Below, one piece after another: positions 2,518 to 28,613 of a DNA stretch of 64,000 nucleotides (positions are counted from its first letter, which is position 1; each line of letters begins with the position of its first letter). The notes beneath the pieces were generated by a model, which was not told the origin of the DNA, searched no databases, and saw nothing but the letters and a program-made list of their open reading frames with translations. The translations under genes and the position numbers were made by a program. This stretch comes from Solirubrobacterales bacterium (GTDB taxonomy: Bacteria; Actinomycetota; Thermoleophilia; Solirubrobacterales; JBBDJG01), in the NCBI GenBank assembly GCA_038203635.1, contig JBBRDT010000001.1, positions 22,003 through 86,002 of the forward strand, written 5' to 3'.

Positions 2518-2541
2518 AGCCGTGGGGCAGGGAGCAGCCGT

Positions 2542-5500
2542 TTGAGGCGATGCAGGATGCAAGGCAGGGTGCTGGGGGTGGCTACGTTGGTAGCGGTGGC
2601 CGCGCTTGCCCTGCTGCCCTCCGGTGCATCGGGGGTCTATGACGCGAAGCTGAAGCGCTACCCGTACCTGACCGACCTGGTCGGGACGTCGGTGATGGTC
2701 AATTTCGGTACCGACATCTCCTCGACGAGCGCGCTCGTGAAGTACGGGCCGGTGGGGAACTGCACCGCGAACACCGTCACCGCGACGCGCACGTTCATCC
2801 TCGTCAACGGCGTCTCCGAGTATCAGTGGAAGGGTCAGATCAGCGGTCTCGCGGCGAACACGCAGTACTGCTACCGCATCTTCTTCGGCAGCGCCCAGCT
2901 CGACCTGCTCGGCACGGACGCGAGCCCGATCTTCACGACCCAGATTGCGGCCGGGTCGAACTCGCCGTTCAAGTTTGCGGTCTTCGGCGACTGGGGCAAG
3001 GTCGGCGCAACCGGTAACCCCGACCAGGCGAACGTGCTTGCGCAGATCGCAGCGAGCGGCTCGCGTTTCGCGGTCACGACCGGGGACAACGCGTACGAGA
3101 CGGGCAGCCAGAAGGACTACGGGGACCTCTACCAGACCGGTGCCAACACGAGCGCGGTCTTCGGACCGAGCTTCTGGAAGGTGGCGGGCGCGTCACTGCC
3201 ACTCTTCGCGGCACCCGGCAACCACGACTACAACAACTCCACGATCCTCACGAACTGGCCTCAGGACACGGCCGCCTCCACGTCCGGCGGCCGCTATCAG
3301 ACCGATACGTACTGCTGCCAGAACGGCACGACGTCGGCCGACTACCCCAGCACCTGGTACGCGTTCGACGCCGGACAGGCCCGCTTCTACGTGCTGAACA
3401 CTGCGTGGGACGACACCAACGCCGGCACGACCACCGCGTTCAAGAACGACTTCGACAACCACTGGGGCCCCAATTCGCCGCAGTACCAGTGGCTTGCCAA
3501 CGACCTCGCCACGCACCCGAAAGCGCTGCGATTCGCCTTCTGGCACTACCCACTCAACTCCGACAGCAGCGAGGGCGGGCCCGACACCTACCTGCAGGGT
3601 GCCAACTCGCTCGAGGGGCTGCTGAAGACCTACGACGTGACGGCCAGCTTCAACGGGCATTCCCACAACTACCAGCGCAACACCGCGCCGCCCGGGGGCA
3701 TTCCGGCGCATATCACCGGCGGCGGTGGCGCGAACCTCGAGTCCATCGGTTCCACCAACGGTTGCGGCGCGCAAGACGCGTACGGCATCGGCTGGTCCAA
3801 CACGGCCAACGTGGGCAGCAGGTGCGGCGCCGCACCGACTCCCGCCACCAAGGACCGGGTGCACCACTTCTTGCTCGTGAGCGTGAGCGGCACGTCGGTG
3901 ACGGTCACCCCCACCGACGAGCTCGGGAGGACGTTCGACCCGATCACCTACAACGCACCGGCGCTCAACGCCAACCTGTCGCTGACGAACACCGACGCAC
4001 CCGACCCGGTGCTGGTCGGCCAGCAGGTGACCTACACGCTGACGGTCGGGAACGCGGGCCCGCGGGCCGCGACCGGAACCGTCGTCACGGACACGTTGCC
4101 CGCCGGGATGATCTTCGATTCGGCGACGCCGTCGCAGGGCACCTGCTCCCAGTCGGGGGTCACCGTCACCTGTCAGCTCGGCACGGTCGGCAACGGCGCG
4201 ACCCCAACCATCCAGATCAAGGGGCGGCCGCAATCCACGGGGACCATCAACAACTCGGCCACAGTCGCCTCGAACGTCAACGACCCCACCACCAGCAACA
4301 ACAGCGCGAGCGCGTCGACCGTCGTCAACCCGGCCGCCGACCTGGCCGTGACCAAGACGGGCTCTCCCGACCCGATCGCGGTCGGCACCCAACTCACTTA
4401 CACGGTCGGCGTCAGCAATGCCGGCCCCTCGAGCGCCACCGGCATCACCCTGACCGACACGCTGCCCGCGGGGGTGACGTACAACTCGGCCACGCCCACA
4501 CAGGGCAGCTGCTCGCAGGCGTCGGGCACGGTCACGTGCTCGCTCGGGACGCTGGCAAACGCAGCCAGCGCGAGCGTCTCGATCAAGGTCACGCCTCAGG
4601 CTGAAGGCTCGATCACGAACCAGGCCAACGTGGTCTCGCTGACCGGCGACCCGAACACCGCCAACAACGGGGCGAGCGCCGTGACGACCGTGAACCCGGC
4701 CGCGGACCTGGCCCTGACCAAGACCGATTCGCCCGATCCGGTGCTGGTCGGCCAGCAGCTCACCTACACGCTCACCACTCAAAATGCCGGGCCGTCTGGC
4801 GCGGCAGCCGTGCAGCTGACCGACACGCTCCCGGCCGGTGTGACTTTCGTCTCGGCTGTCCCATCGCAGGGCACATGCTCGCAATCGGCCGGCGTTGTCA
4901 CATGCTCGCTGGGAACGATCGCGAACGCCGCCAACGCCAGCGTCTCGATCAAGGTCACGCCGCAGTCCACGGGCTCGATCACCAACCAGGCGAGCGTCAC
5001 CTCCTCGGTCACCGACCCGAATTCCGCCAACAACACCGCGAGCGCCGCGACGCTTGTGAACCCGGTCGCCGACATGGTGGTGACCAAGACCGACTCGCCC
5101 GACCCGGTGCTGGTCGGCCAACCACTCACCTACACGGTCGGCGTTCAGAATTCCGGTCCGTCGAGCGCCACCAGCGTGTCGATGACCGACACGCTGCCGG
5201 GCGGGGTGACGTTCAACTCGGCCGTTCCCTCGCAGGGCAGCTGCTCGCAGGCGGCGGGCGTTGTCACCTGCCCACTCGGAACGATCGCAAGCGGCGCCGG
5301 CGCCAGCATCCAGATCACGGTCACGCCGCAGTCCACGGGCTCGATCACCAACCAGGCGAGCGCCTCGTCGAGCGTCAGCGATCCGAACTCGGCGAACAAC
5401 ACCGCCAGCGCGGCAACGCTCGTGAACCCCGCCGCCAACCTGTCGCTGACCAAGACCGATTCGCCCGATCCGGTCCTGCAGCGCCAGGAGCTGACGTACT

Positions 5501-8500
5501 CGCTCGGCGTGAGCAACGCCGGCCCCTCGAGCGCCACCAGCGTGGTCGTGACCGACACGCTGCCCTCGGGGGTCACGTACAACTCCGCCACGCCCTCCCA
5601 GGGCAGCTGCGCCAATAGCTCAGGCACCGTCACGTGCTCGCTCGGGACCATCGCCAACGGTGCAAGCGCCACCATCCAGATCAAGATCACGCCGCCGTCC
5701 ACGGGGTCGATCACGAACTCCGCAAGTGCCACGTCCGGGGTCAGCGATCCGACCCCCGCCAACAACTCTGCAAGCGCAAGTACCCTCGTGAACCCGGTCG
5801 CCGACCTGTCGATCACCAAGTCGGACTCGCCCGACCCGGTTTCCTCCGGCCAGCAGCTGACCTACACCCTCGCGCTCCAAAACTCCGGGCCCTCGGGCGC
5901 GACCGGCGTTACCGTCACCGACACACTTCCCGGCGGCGTGACGTACAACTCCGCCACGCCATCGCAGGGCACCTGCTCACAGTCGAGCGGCACGGTCACC
6001 TGCAACCTCGGCGCCGTGGCAAACGGCGCAAATGCGAGCGTGAGCATCGTGGTGACGCCCACCGGGGGAACCACGATCACCAACCAGGCAAGCGTGTCGG
6101 CCGCCACCGCCGACCCGGCCCTTGTCAACAACGCGTCCAGCGCGTCCACCACGGTCGATCCGATCGCCGATCTGAGCCTGACCAACTCGGACGCACCGGA
6201 CCCGGTGCTGTCGGGCAACGAGCTCACCTACACGCTCGGTGTTCACAACTCGGGCCCCGCGAGCGCGCCGAGTGCGTCTCTGAGCGACACCTTCCCGGCC
6301 GGGGTGACATACGTGTCCGCCACCACCACGCAGGGCAGCTGCGCCCGCTCGGGCAACACCGTTATCTGCGCGCTCGGCACGCTCTCCAGCGGCGCCGACG
6401 TGACCGTCACGATCAAGGTCAACACCGGCGCACCGGGAACGATCACGAATGACGCCACCGTCTTGTCCACGGCCACCGACCCAAGCTCCGGCAACAACTC
6501 GGCAAGCGCCGTCACGACCGTCAAGCCGGTCGCCGACCTCGCCTTGACGAAGTCCGATGCGCCGGACCCGGTGCTAGCGGGCCAGCTTCTCACCTACACC
6601 CTCGGGGTCTCCAACGGCGGCCCGCAGGACGCGCCCGGCGTGACGGTGACCGACACCCTGCCGGCCGGGGTGACTTTCGAATCCGCCACGCCGACGCAGG
6701 GCAGCTGCACCCAGTTGGCGGGCACGGTCACCTGCGCGCTCGGCACCGTGGCCAACAGCGGCAGCGCAAGCGTCGACGTCAAGGTCCGGCCGCAGAGCGA
6801 GGGGAGCATCACGAACCAGGCGAGCGTCACCTCCGGCGCAGGGGACCTGAACCCGTCGAACGACTCGGCAAGCGCGCAGACGACTGTCGATCCCGCCGCC
6901 GACCTCGAGCTCACCAAGACCGACTCAGCCGACCCGGTGTACTCGGGCGACGAGCTCACCTACACGCTGGCGGTCCACAACGCCGGTCCGTCGGCCACGA
7001 GCGGGGTCGCGCTGAGCGACACCCTGCCCGCGGGTGCCACGTACGTGTCCTTCACCGCCAGCCAGGGCAGCTGCTTCAGATCCGGAAGCTCGGTGCTCTG
7101 CTCGCTGGGAACGCTCGCCAATCAGGCAAACGCGACCGTCACGATCAAGGTCATAGCCCAGGCCGTGGGCACGCTAACCAACACGGCCAACGTCTTCGGC
7201 ATGAACGCGGACACGGACACCGCTGACAACGCGGCATCGGCCGACACGACCGTCAACCCGTCGGCGAACCTCTCGCTCACCAAGTCCGACTCGCCCGACC
7301 CGGTGGCGGCAGGCGAGCTGCTGACCTATTCGCTTGGAGTCCAGAATGCAGGGCCGCAGGCCGCGACGGGCGTGACGGTGACCGACACGCTGCCCGCCGG
7401 AGTGCTGTTCGAGTCGGCGACAGCGTCCCAGGGCGACTGCACCGAGTCGAGCGGCACCGTGACCTGCGCGCTCGGCACAGTCGCGAACGCGGGGAGCGCA
7501 AGCGTCGAGATAAAGGTGCGCCCGCAGGAAGGCGGCCAGATCACCAATCAGGCGACCGTCGACTCCGATCTCGAAGACCAGGTGCCGGGCAACAATTCGG
7601 CAAGCGCAGTGACGACCGTGGACCCGGCCGCCGACCTCTCGCTGACGAAGACGGACTCCCCCGACCCGGTGCTGGCCGGCGAGCTGCTCACCTACACCCT
7701 CGCCGTCCACAGCGCCGGGCCCTCGAGCGCCACCGCCGTGCAGGTCACCGACAACCTGCCGGCCGGGGTCACCTTCGACTCCGCCGACCCCACCCAGGGC
7801 ACCTGCACCGAGTCGAGCGGCACCGTGACGTGCGCGCTCGGCACGCTGGCCGGCGGGGCCGACGCGGGCGTCGAGATCAAGGTTCGTCCGCAGCAGGGAG
7901 GCTCCATCACGAACGAGGCGAGCGTCAGCTCGGCCGTTCAGGATCCGACCTCCTCGAACAACTCCGCGAGCGCGGAGACGACGGTGGTTCCGGCGGCCGA
8001 CCTCTCGCTCACGAAGACAGATACTCCTGATCCGGCGCTCGAGGACGAGCAGCTCACATACTTGCTGACCGTCCAAAACGCCGGGCCGCAGAGCGCAACG
8101 GGCGTTGCGCTCACCGACAACCTGCCGGCCGGCGTGACATTCGACTCCGCGACCCCGTCACAGGGCACCTGCTCCGAGTCGAGCGGCACGGTCACGTGCG
8201 CGCTCGGGACGATCGCCGACGAGGGCAGCGCGAGCGTCGAGATCAAGGTCACTCCACCGGACCCGGCGACGCTCACCAACGAGGCCAGCGTGAGCTCCGA
8301 CCTGGCGGATCCGGATTCGGCCGACACCACCGCAAGCGCCGAGACCACGGTGCGACCCGTCGCCGACCTCGCACTGACGAAGTCCGACGCTCCGGACCCG
8401 ATCCTGGCGGGCGAGGAGCTCACCTACACCCTGACCGTGGACAACTCAGGGCCACGCAGCGCCACCAGCGTGCAGCTCACCGACACCCTGCCCGCCACGG

Positions 8501-10821
8501 CAACGTTCGTCTCCGCCACGCCCTCACAGGGCGGCTGCTCGGAGACGGCCGGCACGGTCACCTGCGCGCTCGACACGATCGCCGACCAAGGCAGCGCGAC
8601 GGTCGAGATCAAGGTCACGCCACGCGAGGGTGAAGTGATCACGAACGACGCGACCGTTTCCTCCGACGAGGGTGACCCGACCCCCTCGAACAACTCGGAC
8701 AGCGCCGACACGACCGTGAGCCCGGCCGCCGACCTCGAGCTGACCAAGACGGACTCGCCCGACCCGATTCCGGCGGGCGGACTGCTCACCTACACACTCG
8801 CCGTCCACAACGCCGGCCCTTCGAGCGCACCCGCCGTCCAGCTTTCCGACACCCTGCCGGCCGGCGTGACCTTCGTCTCCGCTGAGCCGACGCAGGGCAC
8901 CTGCAGCCAGGCAGCGGGCATCGTGGACTGCGCGCTCGGCACCATCGCCGACCAGGCAACAGCGAACGTCGCGATCAAGGTCAGGCCGCAGGCCCCCGGC
9001 ACGATCACGAACGTCGCCAGCGTCCTCTCCCTCGCGCTCGATGCCGACACGGCTGACAACAACGCGAGCGCCGAGACGACCGTCGGTCAGGCCGCCGACC
9101 TGTCGCTGACCAAGACCGGCTCGCCGGACCCGGTGCTGCCGGGAGCGCAGCTGACCTACATGCTCACGGTGCACAACGCCGGTCCCGAGACCGCCACGGT
9201 GGTGAGCTTGACCGACACCCTGCCGGGTGGCGTGACCTTCGACTCCGCGACCCCGTCGCAGGGCACCTGCTCCGAGTCGAGCGGCACAGTCACCTGCGCG
9301 CTCGGCACACTCGCCGACGAGGGCGGCGCAAGCGTCGAGATCGACGTCACCCCACAGAGCCCCGGGACGATCACGAACCAGGCGAGCGTGTCGTCGGAGG
9401 TGGACGATCCCGAGCCCGCCGACAACTCCGCAAGCGCGGTGACCACGGTGTCTCCGGTCGCAGACCTCTCGGTCTCGAAGTCCGATGCGCCCGACCCGAT
9501 CCTGGTCGAGGAGCTATTGACCTACTCCCTGTCGGTTGAGAACTCCGGGCCGTCCAGCGCCACCGGCACGAGCTTGACCGACACCCTGCCGGCCGGCGTG
9601 ACCTTCGAGTCGGCCACGTCGACGCAGGGCACCTGCTCGGAGTCGAGCGGCACGGTCACCTGCGCGCTCGGCTCTCTCGCCAACGGCGCAATTGTGGATG
9701 TCGAGATCAAGGTGAGGCCGCAGACAGCCGGCGACATCACCAACCAGGCGGACGTGACCTCGGACGAGCATGACCCGGCTTCGGGGAACAACTCCGCCAG
9801 CGCCACGACGACCGTGAACAGGATCGCCAACCTTTCGCTCACCAAGTCCGACTCGCCCGACCCGGCGGTGGTGAACGAGCAGGTCACGTACACGCTCTCG
9901 GTCCAGAACTCCGGTCCCTCGAACGCCACCGGCGTGAGCCTCACGGACACCTTGCCGGGTGGCGTCACGTTCGAGTCGGCCACCCCGACTCAGGGAAGCT
10001 GCACACAGGCCGCCGGCACCGTCAGCTGCGCCCTCGGCACCATCGCGAACGGCGCGGACGCGACCGTGACGGTCCGCATCAGGCCACAGAGCGCGGGCTC
10101 GATCACCAACAACGCACAAGTGAGCTCCGGCGCCACGGACCCGAGTACGGGTGACAACACTGCGAGCGCACAGACGACGGTCAACCCGGCCATCGGGTAC
10201 ACACGCCCGAAGACCGCCACGAAAGTGCGCGTTCCGCTCGTCCCGGCCTATGTGGCGTGCGCAGGGCCCAATGGCTTCCACGGTCCCCCGCTCGGCAGTG
10301 CTTCCTGCAAGCCTCCGACCAGAGTCTCGACATTCGTGACCATCGGGTCCCCGGACGCCAACGGGGCCACGGCGAATTCTTCGGGCTCGGCGCGATTCAA
10401 GGTGATGCTCAACGACCTGAGCATCACCGCAAACATCACGGACATCCGGTGCGGCAACGGGACCAGCGCCTGCGGCGCCGCCAACGCCCAGGACGGCCCC
10501 GACTACTCGGGCCAGCTCCAGCTCGCCCTGCCGCTGCGTATCACCGACAGGTTCAGCGGCTCGGCCGGCGGGGTGGCGGCGACCGTTTCGGACACGTCCT
10601 TCCCGGTGCCGATGGCCTGCTCCGAGGTCGCAAACCAAGCGATCGGCTCCACCTGCAGCGTCACCACCTCCGCCAATGCGGTGCTCCCGGGCGCGATCCA
10701 GACTGGCAGGCGCACCGTCTGGCAGATGGATCGGGTGCAGGTGTTCGACGGAGGCGCGGACGGCGTCGCCTCGACCGCCGGGAACGGGCTCTTCGCAGTG
10801 CAGGGCGTGTTCGTGCCGTAG
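2542..10821 (+). CDS. giant secreted protein: purple-acid-phosphatase-type metallophosphoesterase + 17 DUF11 repeats + ~205-aa Cys-containing C-terminal domain
   Basis: Signal peptide MQGRVLGVATLVAVAALALLPSGASG. PAP motif set GDWG / GDNAY / GNHDY / FWHYP / GHSHNY. Then 17 tandem ~121-aa repeats of the DUF11 type (ADLxLTKTDSPDPV..LTYTLxVxNxGPSxA..TDTLPxGVTFxSAxPxQGxC..VTCxLGT..ITNxAxV..NNxASAxTTVxP). Start is either TTG 2542 or ATG 2557 (GAGG 9 nt upstream). Confidence 0.9.
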   Translation: MRRCRMQGRVLGVATLVAVAALALLPSGASGVYDAKLKRYPYLTDLVGTSVMVNFGTDISSTSALVKYGPVGNCTANTVTATRTFILVNGVSEYQWKGQISGLAANTQYCYRIFFGSAQLDLLGTDASPIFTTQIAAGSNSPFKFAVFGDWGKVGATGNPDQANVLAQIAASGSRFAVTTGDNAYETGSQKDYGDLYQTGANTSAVFGPSFWKVAGASLPLFAAPGNHDYNNSTILTNWPQDTAASTSGGRYQTDTYCCQNGTTSADYPSTWYAFDAGQARFYVLNTAWDDTNAGTTTAFKNDFDNHWGPNSPQYQWLANDLATHPKALRFAFWHYPLNSDSSEGGPDTYLQGANSLEGLLKTYDVTASFNGHSHNYQRNTAPPGGIPAHITGGGGANLESIGSTNGCGAQDAYGIGWSNTANVGSRCGAAPTPATKDRVHHFLLVSVSGTSVTVTPTDELGRTFDPITYNAPALNANLSLTNTDAPDPVLVGQQVTYTLTVGNAGPRAATGTVVTDTLPAGMIFDSATPSQGTCSQSGVTVTCQLGTVGNGATPTIQIKGRPQSTGTINNSATVASNVNDPTTSNNSASASTVVNPAADLAVTKTGSPDPIAVGTQLTYTVGVSNAGPSSATGITLTDTLPAGVTYNSATPTQGSCSQASGTVTCSLGTLANAASASVSIKVTPQAEGSITNQANVVSLTGDPNTANNGASAVTTVNPAADLALTKTDSPDPVLVGQQLTYTLTTQNAGPSGAAAVQLTDTLPAGVTFVSAVPSQGTCSQSAGVVTCSLGTIANAANASVSIKVTPQSTGSITNQASVTSSVTDPNSANNTASAATLVNPVADMVVTKTDSPDPVLVGQPLTYTVGVQNSGPSSATSVSMTDTLPGGVTFNSAVPSQGSCSQAAGVVTCPLGTIASGAGASIQITVTPQSTGSITNQASASSSVSDPNSANNTASAATLVNPAANLSLTKTDSPDPVLQRQELTYSLGVSNAGPSSATSVVVTDTLPSGVTYNSATPSQGSCANSSGTVTCSLGTIANGASATIQIKITPPSTGSITNSASATSGVSDPTPANNSASASTLVNPVADLSITKSDSPDPVSSGQQLTYTLALQNSGPSGATGVTVTDTLPGGVTYNSATPSQGTCSQSSGTVTCNLGAVANGANASVSIVVTPTGGTTITNQASVSAATADPALVNNASSASTTVDPIADLSLTNSDAPDPVLSGNELTYTLGVHNSGPASAPSASLSDTFPAGVTYVSATTTQGSCARSGNTVICALGTLSSGADVTVTIKVNTGAPGTITNDATVLSTATDPSSGNNSASAVTTVKPVADLALTKSDAPDPVLAGQLLTYTLGVSNGGPQDAPGVTVTDTLPAGVTFESATPTQGSCTQLAGTVTCALGTVANSGSASVDVKVRPQSEGSITNQASVTSGAGDLNPSNDSASAQTTVDPAADLELTKTDSADPVYSGDELTYTLAVHNAGPSATSGVALSDTLPAGATYVSFTASQGSCFRSGSSVLCSLGTLANQANATVTIKVIAQAVGTLTNTANVFGMNADTDTADNAASADTTVNPSANLSLTKSDSPDPVAAGELLTYSLGVQNAGPQAATGVTVTDTLPAGVLFESATASQGDCTESSGTVTCALGTVANAGSASVEIKVRPQEGGQITNQATVDSDLEDQVPGNNSASAVTTVDPAADLSLTKTDSPDPVLAGELLTYTLAVHSAGPSSATAVQVTDNLPAGVTFDSADPTQGTCTESSGTVTCALGTLAGGADAGVEIKVRPQQGGSITNEASVSSAVQDPTSSNNSASAETTVVPAADLSLTKTDTPDPALEDEQLTYLLTVQNAGPQSATGVALTDNLPAGVTFDSATPSQGTCSESSGTVTCALGTIADEGSASVEIKVTPPDPATLTNEASVSSDLADPDSADTTASAETTVRPVADLALTKSDAPDPILAGEELTYTLTVDNSGPRSATSVQLTDTLPATATFVSATPSQGGCSETAGTVTCALDTIADQGSATVEIKVTPREGEVITNDATVSSDEGDPTPSNNSDSADTTVSPAADLELTKTDSPDPIPAGGLLTYTLAVHNAGPSSAPAVQLSDTLPAGVTFVSAEPTQGTCSQAAGIVDCALGTIADQATANVAIKVRPQAPGTITNVASVLSLALDADTADNNASAETTVGQAADLSLTKTGSPDPVLPGAQLTYMLTVHNAGPETATVVSLTDTLPGGVTFDSATPSQGTCSESSGTVTCALGTLADEGGASVEIDVTPQSPGTITNQASVSSEVDDPEPADNSASAVTTVSPVADLSVSKSDAPDPILVEELLTYSLSVENSGPSSATGTSLTDTLPAGVTFESATSTQGTCSESSGTVTCALGSLANGAIVDVEIKVRPQTAGDITNQADVTSDEHDPASGNNSASATTTVNRIANLSLTKSDSPDPAVVNEQVTYTLSVQNSGPSNATGVSLTDTLPGGVTFESATPTQGSCTQAAGTVSCALGTIANGADATVTVRIRPQSAGSITNNAQVSSGATDPSTGDNTASAQTTVNPAIGYTRPKTATKVRVPLVPAYVACAGPNGFHGPPLGSASCKPPTRVSTFVTIGSPDANGATANSSGSARFKVMLNDLSITANITDIRCGNGTSACGAANAQDGPDYSGQLQLALPLRITDRFSGSAGGVAATVSDTSFPVPMACSEVANQAIGSTCSVTTSANAVLPGAIQTGRRTVWQMDRVQVFDGGADGVASTAGNGLFAVQGVFVP
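3961..10189 (+). repeat. coding tandem array, 17 units of ~363-366 nt (DUF11 repeats)
   Basis: The ADL(S/A/E)LTK(T/S)D(S/A)PDP repeat-unit start motif recurs 17 times in the translation. Many units share long identical DNA strings such as tcgcccgacccggtgctggtcggccagcag. Confidence 0.9.
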
Positions 10822-10834
10822 ACCGGTAACGGCC

Positions 10835-10848
10835 GGAACGGCCGTTCC
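10835..10848 (+). terminator. GC-rich perfect palindrome 14 nt after the giant gene stop (possible terminator hairpin, no U-tract)
   Basis: ggaacgg|ccgttcc. There is no T-run, so this is weak. Confidence 0.2.
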
Positions 10849-10874
10849 CTCCGGGTGGCCACAGTGGTGCTAGG

Positions 10875-14045: not shown

Positions 14046-14103
14046 TGCGTTTGGCCCGGCTCTCATGCGGTTAACGCCTTCGTAACGGGCTCGTAACCGG
14101 GTA

Positions 14104-15026: not shown

Positions 15027-15149
15027 CTAACGGCGCTCGCCGGTAAACGGCGCGGACTGCGGGGCCGCCAGGCAAGGACGCAGGGAGACCGCGTACCGGT
15101 GGTACGTGGTCGACTGAGGACGCAGCATGGCGGTTCCGGAGTCCGCCGT

Positions 15150-17468: not shown

Positions 17469-17475
17469 CTCGCGG

Positions 17476-19863: not shown

Positions 19864-20172
19864 GGTCCGCTAACCCGCCGTATCGCCAGGCTCGACGGAG
19901 TGCCTCCCATGACGCTCCGCGCGGCCCGCCTTCCCTGCCGAATCCACCTGCATGTCCGTGCCTCCATCCGTAAAGCAGGCGCAACATAACGCACCTTGCT
20001 CCGGAAACACAAGGGGGTGCTGCAACTTTGTACCGGCGGTCCTACAACCAGCCGCGCTTGCTATCGGCCCCACCGGTGGGTTAGGTTTCACCACAACGGG
20101 ACGTTGCCGGGGCAGCCGGTGCAGTCGCCGCAGGAATGCTTGGAGTCAGGATGGCCGGAGGCGCGGCAAGGA

Positions 20173-23100
20173 ATGCATAAACGGAGGGGGATCGCGTGCG
20201 TCGCGATCGTTGGCGCGCTGTTCGCCCACTTCGGCGCAGCCGGTGCGTCTGCTGCCGACCCGGTGATCGCGGCGGCCGGCGACATCGCCTGCAGCTCCTC
20301 GAGCTCCAACTACAACGGCGGCAACGGGGTGTCCGACCGCTGCCGGCAGAAGTACACGTCCAACCTGATCTTCAACGCAGGCCTCTCGGCGGTCCTCGTG
20401 CTGGGCGACATGCAGTACGAGAGCGCCAGCCTGTCGGGCATCAATAGCTCCTACAACCCGACCTGGGGCCGGGTGAAGTCGATCACCCGCCCGGCGCTTG
20501 GGAACCACGAGTACAAGACGGCCAACGCGGCGGGCTACTTCGACTACTTCAACGGCAGCGGCGCCGCCACGGGCCCGGCCGGCGAGCGCGGCAAGGGCTA
20601 CTACAGCTTCGACGTCGGCACCTGGCATTTGATCGCGCTCAACTCGAGCGACCACTGCACGATCGTGTCGTGCGCGGCCGCCTCGGCACAGGAGGTCTGG
20701 CTGAAGGCCGACCTTGCGGCCAACTCGTCGAAGTACTGCACGCTCGCCTTTTGGCACGACCCGCGCTTCAACTCGGGCCACGACGGCAACGCCGACGAGA
20801 TGAAGCCGCTTTTCCAGGCTCTCTACGACGCGAACGCCGACCTCATGCTCGGCGGGCACGCACACAGCTACGAGCGCTTCGCGCCTCAGAATCCGGCCGG
20901 CGGGCTTGACAATGCGCGCGGCATCCGCCAGTTCGTGGTGGGCACGGGCGGCGCATTCTGGACGAGCATCGGCACGCCGAAGCCCAACAGCGAAGTGCGT
21001 CAAAACAGCACGTACGGCGTGCTGAAACTGACTCTCAGACCCACGGGCTACGACTATCAGTTCGCCCCCGAGGCGGGCAAGACGTTCACCGACTCCGGCA
21101 CGGGCACGTGCCATGGCGGCACGCCGCCCCCGACCGACACGATCAAGCCCTCGATCCCCGGCAACGTGCGCGCCACCGCGGGCACGGGTCAGGTCTCGCT
21201 GCTCTGGAACCAGTCCACGGACAACGTGGGCGTCACGGGGTACCAGGTGTTCCGGGGCGCGACGCAGGTCGCGACGCTCGGCTCGGTCACCTCGTACACC
21301 GACCCCAACCTCGCGCCGGGCACCTACAGCTACACGGTGCGCGCAGTGGACGGCGCGGGCAACGTCTCCGACGCCAGCGCTGCGGCAAGCGCGACGGTCG
21401 CGGACACCACCAAGCCGACGCCGCCGACGCTCACGGCCACGGCGAGCGCGGGACAGGTCGCCCTCAGCTGGCAGGGGGCCACCGACAACGTTGGAGTGAC
21501 CGGGTACCAGCTGTACCGGGGAGCCACGCAGATCGCCACTCTGGGAGGCGCCGTCACGTCGTACACCGACGCAAATCTCGCGGCAGGCGGCTACAGCTAC
21601 ACCGTGCGCGCCGTCGACGCCGCGGGCCTCTCCTCGGACGCCAGCAACACTGCCAGCGCGACCGTGCCCGACACGACCAAGCCGACGACCCCCACCCTGT
21701 CAGCGACCGGCAGCGCGGGGCAGGTCGCGCTGAGCTGGACGGTGTCCACCGACAACGTCGCAGTCACGGGATACGAGGTGTTCCGCGGCTCGGTGCGGAT
21801 CGCGGTCCTCGGCCCCTCCGCCAACTCCTATGCCGACACCGGCCTCTCGCCCGGCACCTACTTCTACGCCGTGCGGTCCTTCGACGCGGCCAACAACTTC
21901 TCGATTTCGAGCAACACCGCGAGCGGGACCGTGCCCGACGGGCTGAAGCCGAGCGCCCCGGGCAACCTGACCGCCTCCGCGCCGACGTCGGCCGCGGTCG
22001 ACCTGAGCTGGGTGGCTTCGACCGACAACGTGGGCGTGACCGGCTACAGGGTCTACCGCGACGGTGCACTGATCGCCAGCCCGGGGGCGGCGGCCACCTC
22101 CTACAGCGACTCGGCTGTCTCCGCGACCGTCACCTATCACTACGTCGTGCGCGCGATCGACGCCGCAGGCAACCTCTCCGACCCCAGCAGCGACGTGCCC
22201 GTGACGGTGCCCGACACCGTCAAGCCCAGCGCTCCGGGGAACCTCCACACGACCGCGGTGACCTCCAGCCAGGTGGACCTCGCCTGGAACGCGTCTACCG
22301 ACAACGTCGCCGTGACCGGCTACCGCGTGTTCCGCAATGACGTGCCGATCGCGGACGTGAGCGCCGCGACCCTGTCTTACTCGGACGGCCCGATCACCCC
22401 GGGCACCTACCGCTACACCGTGCGCGCGGTCGACGGTGCCGGGAACGTCTCGGACGCGAGCACCGAGGTGACGGCCACGGTGCCCGACACGGAGAAGCCC
22501 ACGACCCCCCAGAACCTCGACGCCACCGCCCGAGGCGCTTTCCAGGTCGACCTCACGTGGGACGCATCCACCGACAACGTCGGCGTGGCCAGCTACCTGA
22601 TCTACCGCAACGACGTGCACATCGACACGGTTAGCGGCACGGACACCTCGTACACGGACAACGTGCTCGCCCCGGACCTCTACACGTACTACGTGCGCGC
22701 GGTGGACGACGCGGGGAACCTCTCCGACCCCAGCAACACCGACTCCGCGACTGTCGTCCCGCCGGACGATGAGCTTCCAACGGTGCCGGGCAACCTGACG
22801 GCCGCCTTGAACGGGACGGACCGGGTCGACCTGAACTGGGAGGAGTCGAGCGACAACGTCCTCGTCACCGGGTACCGGATCTACCGCAACGACGAGCTGA
22901 TCAAGACGATCGGCCCGGGATCGTCTTGGTCCGACACCGGGGTCCCCGCGCGTGACCACGAATACCGCGTGCGGGCCGAGGACGCCGCCGGCAACCTTTC
23001 CGACCCGAGCAACCCGGCGGGCGTGATCGTGCCCGACACTGCGCCCCCGTCACCTCCGGGCAACCTCACCGCGAGCGCGCCGGACGGAGGCCCCGTGCTG

Positions 23101-25347
23101 CTCGAGTGGGAGGCCGCGGACGACAACGTCGGGGTCGCCGGATATGAGGTCTACAGGGACGGTGCGTTCATCGCCTCGATCGATCCGGGCACCTCCTACT
23201 CCGACCCGGTCGGCGCAGGGACCTACGCGTACCACCTCAAGGCGATGGATCCGACGGGGAACATGTCGCAGGCGAGCAACACCGCAAACGTGACCGAGCT
23301 CGCGCCGGACACGGAGGACCCCGGTCCGCCGGCAAACCTCCAGGCGCAGGTCGCGGCCGGAAAGGTCGACCTCCTTTGGGACGCCGCCACGGACAACAGG
23401 GCGGTGACGCAATACGAGATCCGCCGCGACGGCGCGGTCGTCGCAACGATCGGGGCCGCCTCGACGTCGTGGTCCGACAGCAACGTCACGGCGCCGGTCA
23501 CGTACGAGTACGACGTACGCGCGCTCGACGCGGCGGCGAACGTGTCGCTGCCCAGCAACACCGCGAGCGCGACGGTGCCCGACACGCAGAAGCCGACGCC
23601 GCCCACGAACCTGACCGCGAACGCCACCGCGAGCCAGGTCGACCTCACGTGGGGTGCGGCGGGCGACGACGTGGCGGTTACGCAATACAGGATCTATCGC
23701 GATGGTGCGGCGATCGCGACGATCGGCCCGGGAACCTCGTGGTCCGACAGCAGTGTCACGGCTCCCGGCTACGAGTATGAGGTGCGGGCGCTCGACGCGG
23801 CCGACAACCTCTCCGACCCCAGCAACAAGGTCACCGCCACCGTGCTCGATGCCCAGAAGCCCACTGCGCCCGGGACCCTGACGGCTACCGCCGCCGGGCC
23901 GAACCAGGTCAACCTCACCTGGACGGCATCAGGCGACAACATCGGCGTGACGGGCTACCGCGTCTACCGTGACACGGCGCCGATCGCGACCATCGGAGCG
24001 GTCACCACCTTCTCTGACACGGGCGTTGCCGGCAGCACCACCTATGCGTACGAGGTCCGCGCCCTGGATGCCGCCGGCAACGTCTCCGATCCGAGCAACA
24101 CCGCCCCGGCGACCACGCCGGCCGCCTCCGCCGTGTTCAACTTCTCACCGGAGGCCGATGCCCGTACCCAGGCCTCGGCGGCCACCACCAACTACGCAAC
24201 GAGCTTCCTGCGGGTCGACGGCGGTACCGACCCGGCCGTGGAGAGCCTGCTGCGGTTCACGGTCACCGGCGCGCCGGCAGGATCAATCCGAAGCGCCAAG
24301 CTGCGCGTGTACGCCTACAGTGGAACCGTGGACGGACCGGCAGTCTTCACCACCAATCCCGCCTGGAACGAGCAGGCGATCAACTGGAACAACCGCCCAC
24401 CGCGCACCAGCGCGACCACCGATGACAAGGGCGCGATCGCGACCAACAGCTGGGTCGAGTACGACGTCACCTCCTTCGTCACGAGCAACGGCACCTACAG
24501 CTTCGGGCTGGCCGGCACCTCCACCGACGGCGTCGACATCTACTCAAAGGAATCCGCGACCCTGCGACCGGAGCTCGTGGTGACGACCGGCGCCCCGGAC
24601 ACGCAGAAGCCCACGCCGCCACCCACCCTCGCCGCGACCGTCATGACCGCGTCGCGGGTCGATCTCTCCTGGCAGCCCGCGGGCGACAACGTCGGGGTGA
24701 CCGGCTACCAGGTCCTGCGCAACGGCAACCAGATCGCGAGCCTCGGGGTGACGACGGCGTACTCCGACACGTCCGTCGCGGCGAACACTTCCTACACCTA
24801 CCAGGTCCGCGCGGTGGACGCCGCCGGCAACGTCTCGGACCCCAGCAACTCCGCGCCGGCCGCGACACCGCCGGTGGCGACGGTGCTGACCCTCTCCCCC
24901 GAGGCGGACGCCCGTACCCAGGAGGCGAACCCGACCACCAACTACGGGACCGCCTACCTGCGCGTGAACGGCGGCTCCGAGCTGGACGTCGAGACCCTCG
25001 TGCGCTTCACCGTGACCGGAGCCCCGGCGGGAAGCGTGGCGAGCGCCAAGCTGCGCCTCTACAACTACAACGGCACCGCGGACGGCCCGGCTCTTTACCC
25101 GACCGTCACATCCTGGAACGAGACCGCGGTCAGCTGGAACACGCGACCGGCCCGCACGAGTGGTACCCCGACGGACGACAAGGGCGCGATCGCGAAAAAC
25201 ACCTGGGTCGAGTACAACGTGACGCCTCTCGTGACCGGGAACGGCACGTACAGCTTCGCCCTGGCCACGACCTCCAGCGACGGCATCGACTTCTACAACC
25301 GCGAGGCGGCAACGCTGCGCCCCGAGCTCGTGGTGACGCTGCGCTAG
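20173..25347 (+). CDS. giant secreted protein: PAP-type metallophosphoesterase + 12 FN3 repeats + 2 DNRLRE-like beta-sandwich modules
   Basis: ATG 20173 gives the signal peptide MHKRRGIACVAIVGALFAHFGAAGASA|ADP. Motifs GDIAC / GDMQY / GNHEY / FWHDP / GHAHSYE. FN3 units read KP(S/T)xPxNLTAxAxxxxxVDLSWxASTDNVGVTGYRVYRDG...YxYxVRAxDAAGNxSDPS. Two ~150-aa modules carry NY(A/G)T..LRV..LxRFTV..AKLR(V/L)Y..W(N)E..(I/V)xWN(N/T)RP..RPELVVT. Confidence 0.9.
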   Translation: MHKRRGIACVAIVGALFAHFGAAGASAADPVIAAAGDIACSSSSSNYNGGNGVSDRCRQKYTSNLIFNAGLSAVLVLGDMQYESASLSGINSSYNPTWGRVKSITRPALGNHEYKTANAAGYFDYFNGSGAATGPAGERGKGYYSFDVGTWHLIALNSSDHCTIVSCAAASAQEVWLKADLAANSSKYCTLAFWHDPRFNSGHDGNADEMKPLFQALYDANADLMLGGHAHSYERFAPQNPAGGLDNARGIRQFVVGTGGAFWTSIGTPKPNSEVRQNSTYGVLKLTLRPTGYDYQFAPEAGKTFTDSGTGTCHGGTPPPTDTIKPSIPGNVRATAGTGQVSLLWNQSTDNVGVTGYQVFRGATQVATLGSVTSYTDPNLAPGTYSYTVRAVDGAGNVSDASAAASATVADTTKPTPPTLTATASAGQVALSWQGATDNVGVTGYQLYRGATQIATLGGAVTSYTDANLAAGGYSYTVRAVDAAGLSSDASNTASATVPDTTKPTTPTLSATGSAGQVALSWTVSTDNVAVTGYEVFRGSVRIAVLGPSANSYADTGLSPGTYFYAVRSFDAANNFSISSNTASGTVPDGLKPSAPGNLTASAPTSAAVDLSWVASTDNVGVTGYRVYRDGALIASPGAAATSYSDSAVSATVTYHYVVRAIDAAGNLSDPSSDVPVTVPDTVKPSAPGNLHTTAVTSSQVDLAWNASTDNVAVTGYRVFRNDVPIADVSAATLSYSDGPITPGTYRYTVRAVDGAGNVSDASTEVTATVPDTEKPTTPQNLDATARGAFQVDLTWDASTDNVGVASYLIYRNDVHIDTVSGTDTSYTDNVLAPDLYTYYVRAVDDAGNLSDPSNTDSATVVPPDDELPTVPGNLTAALNGTDRVDLNWEESSDNVLVTGYRIYRNDELIKTIGPGSSWSDTGVPARDHEYRVRAEDAAGNLSDPSNPAGVIVPDTAPPSPPGNLTASAPDGGPVLLEWEAADDNVGVAGYEVYRDGAFIASIDPGTSYSDPVGAGTYAYHLKAMDPTGNMSQASNTANVTELAPDTEDPGPPANLQAQVAAGKVDLLWDAATDNRAVTQYEIRRDGAVVATIGAASTSWSDSNVTAPVTYEYDVRALDAAANVSLPSNTASATVPDTQKPTPPTNLTANATASQVDLTWGAAGDDVAVTQYRIYRDGAAIATIGPGTSWSDSSVTAPGYEYEVRALDAADNLSDPSNKVTATVLDAQKPTAPGTLTATAAGPNQVNLTWTASGDNIGVTGYRVYRDTAPIATIGAVTTFSDTGVAGSTTYAYEVRALDAAGNVSDPSNTAPATTPAASAVFNFSPEADARTQASAATTNYATSFLRVDGGTDPAVESLLRFTVTGAPAGSIRSAKLRVYAYSGTVDGPAVFTTNPAWNEQAINWNNRPPRTSATTDDKGAIATNSWVEYDVTSFVTSNGTYSFGLAGTSTDGVDIYSKESATLRPELVVTTGAPDTQKPTPPPTLAATVMTASRVDLSWQPAGDNVGVTGYQVLRNGNQIASLGVTTAYSDTSVAANTSYTYQVRAVDAAGNVSDPSNSAPAATPPVATVLTLSPEADARTQEANPTTNYGTAYLRVNGGSELDVETLVRFTVTGAPAGSVASAKLRLYNYNGTADGPALYPTVTSWNETAVSWNTRPARTSGTPTDDKGAIAKNTWVEYNVTPLVTGNGTYSFALATTSSDGIDFYNREAATLRPELVVTLR
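21142..24120 (+). repeat. coding tandem array of 11 FN3 units (~280 nt each); a 12th unit lies at ~24601..24870
   Basis: WxxSTDNVGVTGY(R/Q/E)V(Y/F)R recurs in each unit. Confidence 0.85.
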
Positions 25348-25349
25348 CC

Positions 25350-26300
25350 ATGCGCCTCCTCCCGAACAAGAGAAGGCTGCTGATCGGCGCCATCGCGGCC
25401 GCGATCGTCCTGTCATCCGTCGCTCTCGTGCTGGGCGTGGCCGACTCGGCGTCGCCGCCCGAGTCCGGCCCGAAGGTCGACACGCACGTCGACCACTCAT
25501 ACATCTACACGGTCGACGTTGCCAGCGGACAGCTCGCCCAGGAGACCAATATGCAGGGCGAGGGAGCGCTGGAGCCTTCCTGGTCCGCCCAGGGCGACAT
25601 CGTCTTCAGCACCATGGACTGCGACGAGTGCTCCTCGAGCCTCTCCGAGGTGGACCCCGATGCCCCCATCTCCGTCGAGGCACCGATCGACACGACCGTC
25701 GAGCACGTGTTCCAGCCGTCCTGGGCGCCCGACGGTAAGCAGGTCGCAACGGTGGCACTCGGCCGCGGCATCTACGTCGTCGACTCGCAGACCGGCACGG
25801 CGAAGCGGCTGACGTCCGGCCGGTCGGACGAGGCGCCGGACTGGGCCGCCAGCGGAGACTGGATCGCGTTCCACCGGCAGGTGAGCGGCAGCAACTACGA
25901 CATCTTCGCCGTCAACGCCACCACGAAGGCGGAGCGCAGGCTCACGAACGACAACCGGCAACAGACGAATCCCACCTGGTCGCCGGACGGCAGTCAGGTG
26001 GCTTACGCCGAGCAGCGCTCCAACGGGAAGTGGGCGATCGTCACGATGAACGCCGACGGCACGGGTCGCAAGCGCGTGACGACCGCGGGCATCAGCGCCC
26101 AGGAGCCCACCTGGTCGCCCGATGGCACGAGCATCGCATTCATCTTGCAGGAGCTGGACAAGGCTACGATCGCGGTGATTCCCGCGAGCGGGGGCTCGCC
26201 GAAGCGCCTGACGGACCAGAAGATATTTCCCGCAAAGCCGACCTGGTCGCCGGACAGCAAGACCATTGCGTTCGCCGCGACCGTGGTTCAAACGAATTGA
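25350..26300 (+). CDS. membrane-anchored PD40/TolB-like beta-propeller protein
   Basis: N-terminal anchor LLIGAIAAAIVLSSVALVLG. At least six PD40 signatures (PSWSAQGDIVF, PSWAPDGKQVA, APDWAASGDWIAF, NPTWSPDGSQVAY, EPTWSPDGTSIAF, KPTWSPDSKTIAF). Starts 2 nt after the upstream stop. Confidence 0.8.
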   Translation: MRLLPNKRRLLIGAIAAAIVLSSVALVLGVADSASPPESGPKVDTHVDHSYIYTVDVASGQLAQETNMQGEGALEPSWSAQGDIVFSTMDCDECSSSLSEVDPDAPISVEAPIDTTVEHVFQPSWAPDGKQVATVALGRGIYVVDSQTGTAKRLTSGRSDEAPDWAASGDWIAFHRQVSGSNYDIFAVNATTKAERRLTNDNRQQTNPTWSPDGSQVAYAEQRSNGKWAIVTMNADGTGRKRVTTAGISAQEPTWSPDGTSIAFILQELDKATIAVIPASGGSPKRLTDQKIFPAKPTWSPDSKTIAFAATVVQTN

Positions 26301-26304
26301 GGCA

Positions 26305-27789
26305 ATGACGCTGAGCACGTGGGCGAAGGAACGCCCGGCATCCACAGATCTCGTCGTACTGGTCTTACTCGCCGTCGCATTCGCGGTGGCGGTCCTGCCG
26401 TCACAGGCGCGCGCCGCGGACCCGGTGATCGCGGCGGCCGGCAACATCGCCTGCGACCCTGCCAGCCCGTACTTCGCAGCGGGCGCGGGGACCCCTACCC
26501 GGTGCCGTCAGGCCGAGACCGCGGCGTTGCTGCCGGCCGGCCTCGCGGGCGTGCTGACTCTCGGGGACGCCCAGTACTGCTGCGGCACCCTGTCCGCGTA
26601 CACGGCTTCCTACGAGCCGGCCTGGGGCCCGCTGAAGGCTGTCACGCATCCGGCGCTCGGCAATCGTGACTACACGACGCCGGGCGCAGCCGGGTACTTC
26701 GACTACTTCAACGGGCCGGGAATTGCGGATGGCGCGGCGGGCAACCGGGACCAGGGGTACTACAGCTTCGATCTCGGCGCATGGCATCTCATCGCGCTCA
26801 ACTCGAACTGCGCTCACGTCGCCTGCGCAGCCGGCTCTGCGCAGGAGCGCTGGCTGCGCGCAGACCTCGCTGCCCATCCCAACGCCTGCACGCTTGCATA
26901 CATGCACGCGGGGCGCTACAGCTCCGGACGACCGGGCGGCGCGATCTCGGTGGCGCCTTTCTACAGGGCTCTCTACGAGGCCGGGGCCGACGTGGCCCTG
27001 GCGGGCCACGCACGGCACTACGAGCGGTTCGCGCCCCAGACCTCGGTCGGGCGCAGCCCCGCGTTCGGCATCCGTGAGTTCGTGGTCGGCACGGGCGGGC
27101 ACTCCCTGGGCACGATCGGAGCGCCCAAGAAGTACAGCGAGGTACGCCAGGACTCGACGTTCGGAGCGCTGGAGCTCACGCTACGGGCGACCGGCTACTC
27201 CTGGCGATTCATCGCCCCCGGGGGCGCGAGCTTCTCCGACTCGGGATCGGGTGGGTGTCACGGCCCGCCGCCTCCGCGCAAGCCCAAGAAGAAGCCCAAG
27301 CCCAAGCCCAAGCCGGGGCCCGCAAAGAGCAAGACGAAGTGCACCGTGCTCGGGACCCCGCGCAACGACGTCCTGCGGGGCACCCGTGGCCGGGACGTGC
27401 TCTGCGGCATGGGGGGCAACGACCGCCTCCTGGGCGGCGGCGGCAATGACGTGCTGCGCGGTGGTGACGGCAACGACCGGCTCAGCGGCGGCGCCGGGCG
27501 CGATCGCATGGACGGCAACCGCGGGAACGACGTCCTGCGTGGGGGACGAGGCCGGGACCTGCTCAGCGGAGGCGCCGGCAACGACCTGCTGCGCGGGGGA
27601 GGCGGCGCGGACCGTCTCCGCGGCGACGGCGGGCGCAACCGCGTGTTCGGTGACGCGGGCAACGACTACATCGACGTGTCCCGAAACGGAGCCCGCGACA
27701 TCGTCAACGGCGGGCGCGGCCGGGACAGGGCGAAGGCCCAACGCCGCGACAAGGTGCGCAGCATCGAGCGGCTGATCCGCCGCAAGTAG
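26305..27789 (+). CDS. secreted PAP-type metallophosphoesterase paralog with substituted active-site residues + basic KP linker + RTX-type Ca-binding nonapeptide repeats
   Basis: Signal peptide ..AVLPSQARA|ADPVIAAAGNIAC, the same mature N-terminus as the 20173 protein. Motifs GNIAC / GDAQY / GNRDY / YMHAG / GHARHYE. KPKKKPKPKPKPGP linker. About 10 GGxGxDxLx repeats. Confidence 0.85.
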   Translation: MTLSTWAKERPASTDLVVLVLLAVAFAVAVLPSQARAADPVIAAAGNIACDPASPYFAAGAGTPTRCRQAETAALLPAGLAGVLTLGDAQYCCGTLSAYTASYEPAWGPLKAVTHPALGNRDYTTPGAAGYFDYFNGPGIADGAAGNRDQGYYSFDLGAWHLIALNSNCAHVACAAGSAQERWLRADLAAHPNACTLAYMHAGRYSSGRPGGAISVAPFYRALYEAGADVALAGHARHYERFAPQTSVGRSPAFGIREFVVGTGGHSLGTIGAPKKYSEVRQDSTFGALELTLRATGYSWRFIAPGGASFSDSGSGGCHGPPPPRKPKKKPKPKPKPGPAKSKTKCTVLGTPRNDVLRGTRGRDVLCGMGGNDRLLGGGGNDVLRGGDGNDRLSGGAGRDRMDGNRGNDVLRGGRGRDLLSGGAGNDLLRGGGGADRLRGDGGRNRVFGDAGNDYIDVSRNGARDIVNGGRGRDRAKAQRRDKVRSIERLIRRK

Positions 27790-28606: not shown

Positions 28607-28613
28607 CTGCGTG

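Follow-up and report, generated by a model that had tools for sequence, protein, structure and literature searches.

A Solirubrobacterales locus for putative surface-tethered phosphoesterases: two purple acid phosphatase-type heads on long stalks, a conserved probable pseudoenzyme paralog and a predicted glycosylation pair

Positions 2542-27789 of a 64,000-nucleotide (nt) stretch from a Solirubrobacterales bacterium (assembly GCA_038203635.1, contig JBBRDT010000001.1; the whole stretch is called the window) encode three proteins, P1, P2 and P3, with signal peptides that are visible by eye in the translations and with metallophosphoesterase (MPE)-like heads. An earlier note had described these as three paralogous phosphoesterases of the purple acid phosphatase (PAP) type which, together with partner genes for PD40 propellers, a glycosyltransferase (GT) pair and a cyclic di-GMP (c-di-GMP) enzyme, would form one dedicated apparatus not recognised as a described system, with extracellular DNA, teichoic-acid-like polymers or phospholipid as conceivable substrates. 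We mapped the genes by open reading frame (ORF) calling guided by G+C content at third codon positions (GC3) together with Pfam and NCBIfam scans. The G+C content of the window is 65-73%. P1, P2 and P3 denote the giant or head proteins, PD40#1 and PD40#2 the propeller genes, and coordinates are those of the window. The block contains the following features.

2542-10821, plus strand: P1, 2759 amino acids (aa)
2542-3969, plus strand: P1 signal peptide and predicted PAP-type head (Pur_ac_phosph_N, Metallophos, five PAP motifs)
3970-10191, plus strand: P1 stalk of 17 tandem 122-aa CLIPPER (DUF11) domains (Pfam, repeat alignment)
10192-10818, plus strand: P1 C-terminal domain of ~209 aa, predicted all-beta, of an unnamed family (homologue search, AlphaFold2 (AF2) model)
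10875-11915, plus strand: PD40#1, apparent gene remnant
11916-14045, plus strand: GGDEF/HD-GYP gene
14244-15026, plus strand: gene for a 260-aa protein without a family match
15150-17468, minus strand: PMT/PMT_2-type GT-C (Pfam and conserved synteny)
17476-19863, minus strand: DPMS/Ppm1-like GT2 with a GtrA transmembrane (TM) domain
19933-20016, no strand: non-coding conserved block in the divergent GT2/P2 intergenic region (alignment of 7 genomes)
20173-25347, plus strand: P2
20173-21120, plus strand: P2 signal peptide and active-looking PAP-like MPE head (GDIAC, GDMQY, GNHE, WH, GHAH)
21121-24135, plus strand: eleven FN3 domains of P2 (motif scan)
24136-24588, plus strand: first CBM96 of P2
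24616-24852, plus strand: twelfth FN3 of P2
24904-25338, plus strand: second CBM96 of P2
25350-26300, plus strand: PD40#2, with a PD40 beta-propeller behind an N-terminal TM anchor
26305-27789, plus strand: P3
26305-27264, plus strand: P3 signal peptide and putative pseudo-phosphoesterase head (GNIAC, GDAQY, GNRD, MH, GHAR)
27265-27333, plus strand: P3 Pro/Lys-rich linker
end of the linker to 27789, plus strand: P3 RTX Ca-binding beta-roll (HemolysinCabind, E = 9e-37)

Profiles and motifs identify the heads of P1 and P2 as PAP-type. In P1, Pfam recognises Pur_ac_phosph_N (PF16656; residues 44-117, 32.8 bits, cutoff 30) and Metallophos (PF00149; residues 143-377, 38.3 bits, cutoff 21.5), with the five PAP motifs at GDWG 149, GDNAY 181, GNHD 226, WH 334-335 and GHSH 372. 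The P2 head reaches 23.5 bits with the Metallophos model at the same cutoff of 21.5, and both heads carry the full seven-ligand set (D; D..Y; N; H; H.H) in five motif blocks; P3 is the head that does not pass the Metallophos profile. When solved structures were searched by sequence, the P1 and P2 heads each returned PAPs only. Across sequence and fold comparisons, the only solved structures matched by the heads were plant and mammalian PAPs (kidney bean PAP, wheat PAP phytase, TRAP/ACP5). These enzymes share the GDxG/GDxxY/GNH(D/E)/xxxH/GHxH blocks with P1 and P2, but their identity to the bacterial heads is just 14-20%, the bacterial heads sit on long repeat stalks, and the Fe site is replaced in P3. 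Neither P2 nor P3 contains Pur_ac_phosph_N, and their motif I lies ~10 residues past the predicted signal-peptide cleavage site; low-molecular-weight PAPs likewise lack the N-terminal PAP domain.

Of the proposal that the three heads are paralogous and PAP-type, the signal peptides and the motifs of P1 and P2 stand, whereas the implied equality of the heads does not. Identity is 57% between the heads of P2 and P3 (E = 1e-110) and 26% between those of P1 and P2 (E = 8e-8), the N-terminal PAP domain is present in P1 only, and P3 has lost three key PAP residues. By these comparisons the heads are not equal paralogs, and the P1 head and the P2/P3 heads belong to two different large families. The window's best protein matches come from uncultured Solirubrobacterales genomes assembled from metagenomes (Actinomycetota, Thermoleophilia), of which the closest, MFD05747.bin.2.85, shows 86-88% identity in the P2 head. 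When 8000 candidates were scored with the P2 head as query, 7995 of them passed E <= 1e-5; the best 120 matches are mostly the head alone (~330 aa) or head plus RTX (~500 aa), and a few are head plus FN3 plus CBM96. The P1 head gave 1037 matches at E <= 1e-5, alone or fused to DUF11 plus CBM96, FN3 plus CBM96, or SLH. Because both families are repeatedly fused to such modules, PAP-like heads on display or binding modules are common in soil Actinomycetota, Chloroflexota and Gemmatimonadota. The source names of these proteins are uninformative ('hypothetical', 'acid phosphatase type 7'). Stalks of 17 and 12 domains are nonetheless far longer than the best-scoring family members listed, which are mostly < 850 aa. 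One distant contig (L007, JGI 3300079162, 700-9431; L numbers designate homologous loci) encodes a PAP2 phosphatase, a PD40 protein, an MPE-FN3-CBM96 protein (556 aa), an MPE (309 aa) and an MPE-RTX protein close together, a version of this arrangement with a short stalk and another gene order.

Behind its head, P1 carries a long and very regular stalk. Pfam places DUF11 in 17 stretches (E = 0), and repeat alignment resolves them into 17 gap-free units of 122 aa each, in agreement with the count made previously. The current name of DUF11 is CLIPPER, which denotes a CnaA-like domain with an isopeptide bond that forms the stalks of fibrillar adhesins (PMC12617251). Lys7 is found in 15 of the 17 repeats, and Asp41, Asn95 and the Cys59/Cys68 pair are invariant. 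A profile of the 17 repeats aligned with the solved CLIPPER domain 9IFR with the K/D/N triad in register, in a weak match (E = 0.36); a single repeat gave zero matches in a sequence search of the Protein Data Bank (PDB). By family and triad, the stalk is of the CLIPPER/DUF11 type with a Lys-Asp-Asn isopeptide triad, the bond itself being predicted. The P1-type giant of a distant relative, L087, has 10 CLIPPER repeats (L087 14842-20313) against 17 in the window, which suggests that stalk length changes over evolution in these giants. Pfam and NCBIfam scans of P1 found no recognised surface anchor or sorting signal (LPXTG, OmpA-like, SLH and similar).

P1 ends in a 209-aa domain that had been called novel. 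It indeed has no Pfam or NCBIfam match, but it is not confined to P1: it recurs in PD40#1 (11244-11816, 41% identity) and defines a family of 2501 representative clusters. The domain sits at the extreme C-terminus in all of the 150 best matches, behind PD40 (22 of 65 sampled), FG-GAP, DUF11, NHL, SpaA or PKD modules. The AF2 model is all-beta and confident (predicted local distance difference test score (pLDDT) 89.6, predicted TM-score (pTM) 0.86), and Foldseek found zero fold matches for it in the PDB at E < 0.001. A look-up of cluster members yielded no informative name for proteins with this domain. We regard it as a candidate wall-proximal anchor of P1.

The architecture of P2 follows the same plan with other parts. 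A motif scan counts 12 FN3 domains, and two copies of CBM96 are clear (PF24517, 176 bits, cutoff 26; NF033679, 149.9 bits, cutoff 34), so that the 12 FN3 and two DNRLRE-like modules reported before are both borne out. CBM96 is the same family as DNRLRE, and its founding member binds alginate, an acidic polysaccharide (PMC9971899). At the 5' end of the gene, the ATG conserved in relatives (the start of the L009 ortholog) lies within 20150-20175. In the window this ATG has shifted frame and begins an ORF of only 9 codons that ends in TAA, and the window P2 begins at the next ATG, 20173.

The third head tells a different story. P3 has the RTX repeats that had been noticed (HemolysinCabind, above), but no Pfam Metallophos match at E <= 0.01, and three of its motifs have changed: GNIAC with D->N, GNRD with H->R and GHAR with H->R. 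Judged by homology to kidney bean PAP, the changes remove one Asp and one His that are Fe(III) ligands, together with the catalytic His of motif III. A search with the P3 head recovered a coherent clade of RTX proteins, 56-95% identical and without a PF00149 match, in which the same replacements prevail: of 27 members, 25 have D->N in motif I, 24 have Arg for the motif III His and 26 have Arg for the second His of motif V. All six active relatives aligned with the clade keep every ligand residue. More divergent members lose further ligands (GD->GS, GN->GT), and two Arg residues (R121 and R237 in P3) are conserved in the former active site. Because the metal ligands are replaced across a conserved clade, P3 is most likely non-catalytic, and the claim of three phosphoesterases is not supported on this point. 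The note had itself named failure to score as a Metallophos domain as a refuting outcome, and P3 shows it.

The fold and the gene both appear to be maintained. The P3 model is of medium quality (pLDDT 72.9), and Foldseek against the PDB returned PAPs as its top 31 matches (E = 2e-7, probability 1.00, TM up to 0.58), followed by RTX beta-rolls. Pairwise ratios of nonsynonymous to synonymous substitution rates (dN/dS) are 0.11-0.34 for the P3 head and 0.14-0.34 for the P2 head in the same genome pairs; because its values resemble those of the P2 head, P3 is maintained rather than decaying. We therefore describe P3 as a predicted conserved pseudoenzyme with a PAP-like fold under purifying selection. 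Literature searches found nothing relevant on a described MPE pseudoenzyme or on PAPs in Solirubrobacter. Type I secretion of P3 was considered and ruled out: the protein has an N-terminal signal peptide, the host is an actinobacterium, and no type I secretion genes were seen among the neighbours scanned in the window or listed for the orthologous loci.

P2 and PD40#2 are separated by 2 nt in the window and overlap in L004 and L005, and wherever the flank was long enough PD40#2 sits between the orthologs of P2 and P3. Its product is not the TolB of a Tol-Pal system: TIGR02800, with a cutoff of 343 bits, gives 137.5 bits for PD40#2 and 30.5 bits for PD40#1, the match is confined to the propeller, and there are no tol or pal neighbours among the genes scanned.

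A PD40 gene had been said to follow each giant within 2-53 nt. The spacing holds, at 53 nt for P1/PD40#1 and 2 nt for P2/PD40#2; however, PD40#1 appears to be a remnant. Its alignment covers only residues ~200-508 of full-length homologues of ~510 aa, so the first ~190 residues of the family and the signal peptide are missing, and the C-terminal sequence typical of the family, '...QGVFVP*', is encoded in the +1 frame near 11840. These features mark it as a 5'-truncated, 3'-frameshifted remnant of a gene for a PD40 protein with the C-terminal domain, the frameshift reflecting either an assembly indel or a pseudogene. Its truncation, its frameshift and its lack of synteny led us to reject PD40#1 as a true partner of P1.

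Divergent from P2, as reported, lies the glycosyltransferase pair, both genes on the minus strand. The GT-C matches PF02366 (45.9 bits, cutoff 22.7) and PF13231 (47.7 bits, cutoff 26.1), and a sequence search of solved structures found no homologue for it. Residues 37-393 of the GT2 match the full length of Pyrococcus furiosus DPMS (5MLZ, E = 6e-50). By family, the two would form a Ppm1/Pmt-type pair, with mannosyl transfer and the acceptor predicted. In Actinomycetota, Ppm1/Pmt O-mannosylate secreted proteins such as PstS (PMC5882110). The GT2 has in addition a C-terminal extension of ~400 aa (residues 394-795; window 17476-18680) with weak matches only, to TrAA12-like and HprK-related kinase A models in the window and to ScmC in orthologs. 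Between GT2 and P2, the 84-nt block at 19933-20016 is near-invariant in 7 genomes and the sequence flanking it is variable; the block could be a regulator site or a 5' leader. A sigma-70 promoter scan of 19800-28000 found zero sites, terminator-like sites in the region were not above shuffled expectation, and Rfam at gathering thresholds gave one tRNA only, with no c-di-GMP or other riboswitch before the giant genes.

We compared gene order in homologue contexts and in 78 genome loci, fetched with an alignment of the heads and searched by tblastn with the window proteins. The order GT-C, GT2 / P2, PD40, P3 is found in 10 of 10 related contigs with enough flank, down to ~60% identity, so that the expectation of finding these homologues as neighbours in related genomes was borne out. 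The five-gene order was seen in L003/L011, L004/L009, L005/L013, L010, L012, L087 and L088, and part of it in L002/L014 and L089. Six Solirubrobacterales metagenome-assembled genomes (MAGs) share a longer order: a CLIPPER giant with the C-terminal domain, a homologue of the 260-aa protein, GT-C, GT2 / P2, PD40#2, P3 / lipoprotein. The 260-aa protein, 61-78% identical, lies between the P1 ortholog and the GT-C in these six relatives. Where the flank was long enough (L003, L004, L005, L011 and L013), the kinase, regulator, PPK2, enoyl-CoA hydratase and GH114 genes follow in the same order.

In a distant lineage (L087, L088 and L089) the five genes persist, with identities of 60-64% for P3, 51-52% for PD40#2 and 53-54% for the GT-C, while the downstream flank is replaced by genes for a DtxR-type regulator, a Macro-domain protein and a glycerate kinase. 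The P1-type giant lies upstream of the module in six relatives; in L087 it is 4 kb away on the opposite strand, with 68% identity in the head and 54% in the C-terminal domain. Because the five genes persist in the distant lineage while the downstream region is replaced, the conserved unit is GT-C, GT2 / P2, PD40#2 and P3, and P1 is a frequent but movable neighbour.

The region between the P1 ortholog and the 260-aa gene is variable. In the six closest genomes, neither PD40#1 nor the GGDEF/HD-GYP gene is present at this site, and L013 has two extra genes there that carry the C-terminal domain alone. The GGDEF/HD-GYP protein of the window has a multi-TM N-terminal region and intact motifs ('MGGDEFCV', 'ELHDIGK' and 'GTGYPDG'), so it is indeed an embedded membrane protein as described, but its place in the block is not shared by those six genomes. 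The stretch is thus not one 25-kb machine; it consists of a five-gene module, a P1-type giant that tends to lie within 5-25 kb of it, and an insertion specific to the window, made up of the PD40#1 remnant and the GGDEF/HD-GYP gene.

This layering bears directly on the idea that the whole 25 kb is one envelope apparatus, with three active PAP-type phosphoesterases, a PD40 partner for each giant and c-di-GMP control. All the genes it names are present and adjacent, P1-type giants and the P2 module co-occur in two arrangements, and some solitary family members adjoin GGDEF/HD-GYP genes (L006, L067). Yet P3 lacks catalytic residues throughout its clade, the P1 head belongs to a different subfamily, and of the two genes missing in the six closest genomes one is truncated and frameshifted in the window itself. 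We consider a single apparatus of this kind very unlikely.

The same comparisons address the opposite view, that there is no functional unit at all but a set of independent secreted proteins left adjacent by descent in a narrow lineage, with P3 a diverged RTX surface protein. All syntenic genomes do belong to one order, and most members of the P2-head family are solitary (e.g. L006). Against this, the five-gene order survives in L087 and L088 with both flanks replaced and protein identities of just 51-68%, and the P2/PD40#2 spacing, 2 nt here, becomes an overlap in L004 and L005. A PD40 gene and a GT pair also recur beside distant MPE genes, in other arrangements and far above background density: among 72 distant MPE loci, a same-strand PD40 gene is immediately adjacent in seven, compared with one non-adjacent match in ~1.2 Mb, and a GT2+GT-C pair lies within 5 kb in seven, twice with a P1-type head (L058, L067). 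Mere adjacency by descent seems to us improbable.

Our preferred interpretation, which we hold at about even strength, is that the three-layer locus encodes glycosylated, tethered extracellular phosphoesterases, a function predicted from its parts. P1 and P2 would be exported, binuclear-metal PAP-type phosphoesterases, with complete ligand sets and predicted activity. Each is built like a fibrillar adhesin, with an N-terminal catalytic head on what would be a rigid stalk (17 CLIPPER or 12 FN3 domains), and a C-terminal binding end would hold the protein in place: the unnamed domain in P1 and two CBM96 modules, of the acidic-polysaccharide type, in P2. With such a stalk and binding end, the head would reach tens of nanometres into the wall or matrix, where it may free phosphate from, or cut, phosphoester polymers near the cell.

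P3 would be a maintained, non-catalytic paralog of the P2 head, and its most likely role is to bind phosphate or phosphoester ligands or to pair with that head. The PD40#2 propeller, anchored in the membrane and probably translationally coupled to P2, may serve as a docking or assembly partner, and P2 -> PD40#2 -> P3 would form one operon divergent from the GT pair. The GT2 is predicted to make a polyprenyl-phosphate-hexose, and the GT-C to use this hexose donor outside the membrane to glycosylate P1-P3, the acceptors being suggested by analogy; the Pro/Thr-rich linkers between the FN3 domains of P2 are plausible glycosylation sites.

Several points weigh against this interpretation. The Metallophos score of P2 is just over threshold and thus marginal, and in the P3 model the area around motif III, and with it the geometry of the Arg residues, is of low confidence. 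The anchoring ascribed to the C-terminal domain, CBM96 and RTX is deduced from position only. Nothing was found that links the block to phosphate starvation. About 58 of the 72 distant loci have a solitary head gene, and because most family members are solitary the head does not need a PD40 protein or the GT pair. Synteny within one order could partly reflect shared ancestry, and every relative is an uncultured MAG or a metagenome contig.

A matrix or adhesion role is a serious rival, although we judge it somewhat unlikely. Here the giants would be primarily fibrillar adhesins or matrix scaffolds whose heads bind or trim phosphorylated matrix polymers, for example extracellular DNA or phosphorylated glycans, acting with Pel/galactosaminogalactan-like genes and c-di-GMP and not in phosphate nutrition. 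The CLIPPER stalk is a hallmark of fibrillar adhesins (PMC12617251), CBM96 binds acidic polysaccharide (PMC9971899), and a binding-only P3 suits the logic of an adhesin. The region 5-11 kb downstream encodes GH114, a PelF-like GT4 and an Agd3-like deacetylase, of which GH114 is kept in close relatives, and the window holds both GGDEF/HD-GYP and GGDEF/EAL genes. However, the Pel-like genes and the c-di-GMP enzyme are outside the module in the distant lineage (L087, L088), no sortase, LPXTG or other adhesin anchor is present, and the complete, conserved catalytic sites of P1 and P2 favour catalysis.

Within the tethered-phosphoesterase interpretation, a bolder and rather doubtful version combines two proposals. 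P2, PD40#2 and P3 would form a tripartite complex in which P3, with Arg at its Fe site, is a metal-free phosphate or phosphoester receptor, docked via the propeller, that captures substrate or product or gates the active head; jointly, the unnamed, always C-terminal 209-aa domain would act as a new surface-anchoring module of Thermoleophilia. If the tripartite complex is true, it would be an enzyme/pseudoenzyme pair for extracellular phosphorus acquisition.

Comparison with known systems places the locus as an extension of surface-displayed metallophosphoesterases and fibrillar-adhesin-style proteins and not as a categorically new system. The view that the arrangement is unlike anything described does not hold, since the head families are fused to FN3, DUF11, CBM96, SLH or RTX in hundreds to thousands of metagenomic proteins and the CLIPPER stalk is known (PMC12617251). 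The closest characterised enzyme to the P1 head is Mycobacterium tuberculosis Rv2577 (MapH/MmpE), a cell-wall protein that acts as both phosphatase and phosphodiesterase, and in which alanine replacement was used to test each of the seven residues predicted to be catalytic (D, D, Y, N, H, H, H) (PMC7642983). Like P1, it is actinobacterial and exported, with Pur_ac_phosph_N plus Metallophos and the same seven-residue ligand set. Unlike P1, it is a pathogen's enzyme of ~530 aa, a single head without a stalk or C-terminal binding domain; it is not described as having PD40, pseudo-paralog or GT partners, and P2 and P3 lack its type of N-terminal PAP domain.

Other parts of the locus have their own counterparts. 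Fibrillar adhesins with a CLIPPER stalk share with P1 a signal peptide, an N-terminal head, an isopeptide-triad stalk and a C-terminal end domain (PMC12617251), but the P1 head has an enzyme fold rather than that of a lectin or adhesin, and its end is not a known anchor signal. The window GT pair resembles actinobacterial Ppm1/Pmt in combining a DPMS-like polyprenyl-phosphate mannose synthase with an extracytoplasmic PMT-family GT-C (PMC5882110). In Streptomyces, Ppm1 and Pmt are encoded by unlinked housekeeping genes, whereas the window genes are paired and divergent from an operon, and the window GT2 has an extra domain of ~400 aa.

Firmicutes wall-anchored 5'-nucleotidases, such as Staphylococcus aureus AdsA and Bacillus subtilis YfkN, are likewise surface-displayed calcineurin-like phosphoesterases. 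They belong to another MPE subfamily (5'-nucleotidase with a C-terminal domain) and are anchored by LPXTG and sortase; they are not known to have a long stalk, or a partner of the pseudoenzyme or PD40 kind.

Solirubrobacterales and related bacteria are numerous in soil; most have not been cultured, and they are poorly understood. If these proteins do act as tethered phosphoesterases outside the cell, the turnover of organic phosphorus in soil would have a contributor that has so far gone uncounted. The locus also offers experimental handles: a PAP-fold enzyme/pseudoenzyme pair, a predicted mannosylation pair linked to specific secreted candidate substrates, and a large unnamed C-terminal domain family. 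Its most interesting elements, the conserved dead paralog and this domain family, were missed by the earlier note.

Downstream of P3 the window continues with the following genes.

~27803-28570, minus strand: lipoprotein without a family match (likely start 'MLLIVGG...LVAGC', lipobox LVAGC)
28614-28958, minus strand: PepSY protein
29006-30358, minus strand: HAMP histidine kinase
30382-31062, minus strand: OmpR-type regulator
31424-32209, minus strand: PPK2
33157-33987, plus strand: GH114
~34365-35700, minus strand: multi-TM protein
35669-37153, minus strand: PelF-like DUF3492 plus GT4
37189-39006, minus strand: Agd3-like CBM87 plus deacetylase

The flank at 27803-32209 is kept only in closer relatives. 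The kinase and regulator beside P3 score best with CztS/CztR-type (heavy-metal-type) models, below cutoff, with PhoR/PhoB lower, and no pst or phoU genes occur in the window. A link to the Pho regulon was considered and is unsupported, as the kinase and regulator are not PhoR/PhoB-like and PPK2 is found only in the closer relatives. Positions 33157-39006 form a Pel/galactosaminogalactan-like exopolysaccharide cluster, of which GH114 is kept in the flank of close relatives.

Further along, a second c-di-GMP protein (GGDEF plus EAL) is encoded at 41287-43272 on the minus strand, and a second pair of HAMP kinase and OmpR-type regulator genes at 50259-52366. A redox cluster at 46217-49721 comprises ApbE, a pyridine-nucleotide-disulphide reductase and a ferric-reductase-like membrane protein, and the gene at 55546-57870 encodes a NorB-type nitric oxide reductase fused to a cytochrome c-like domain.

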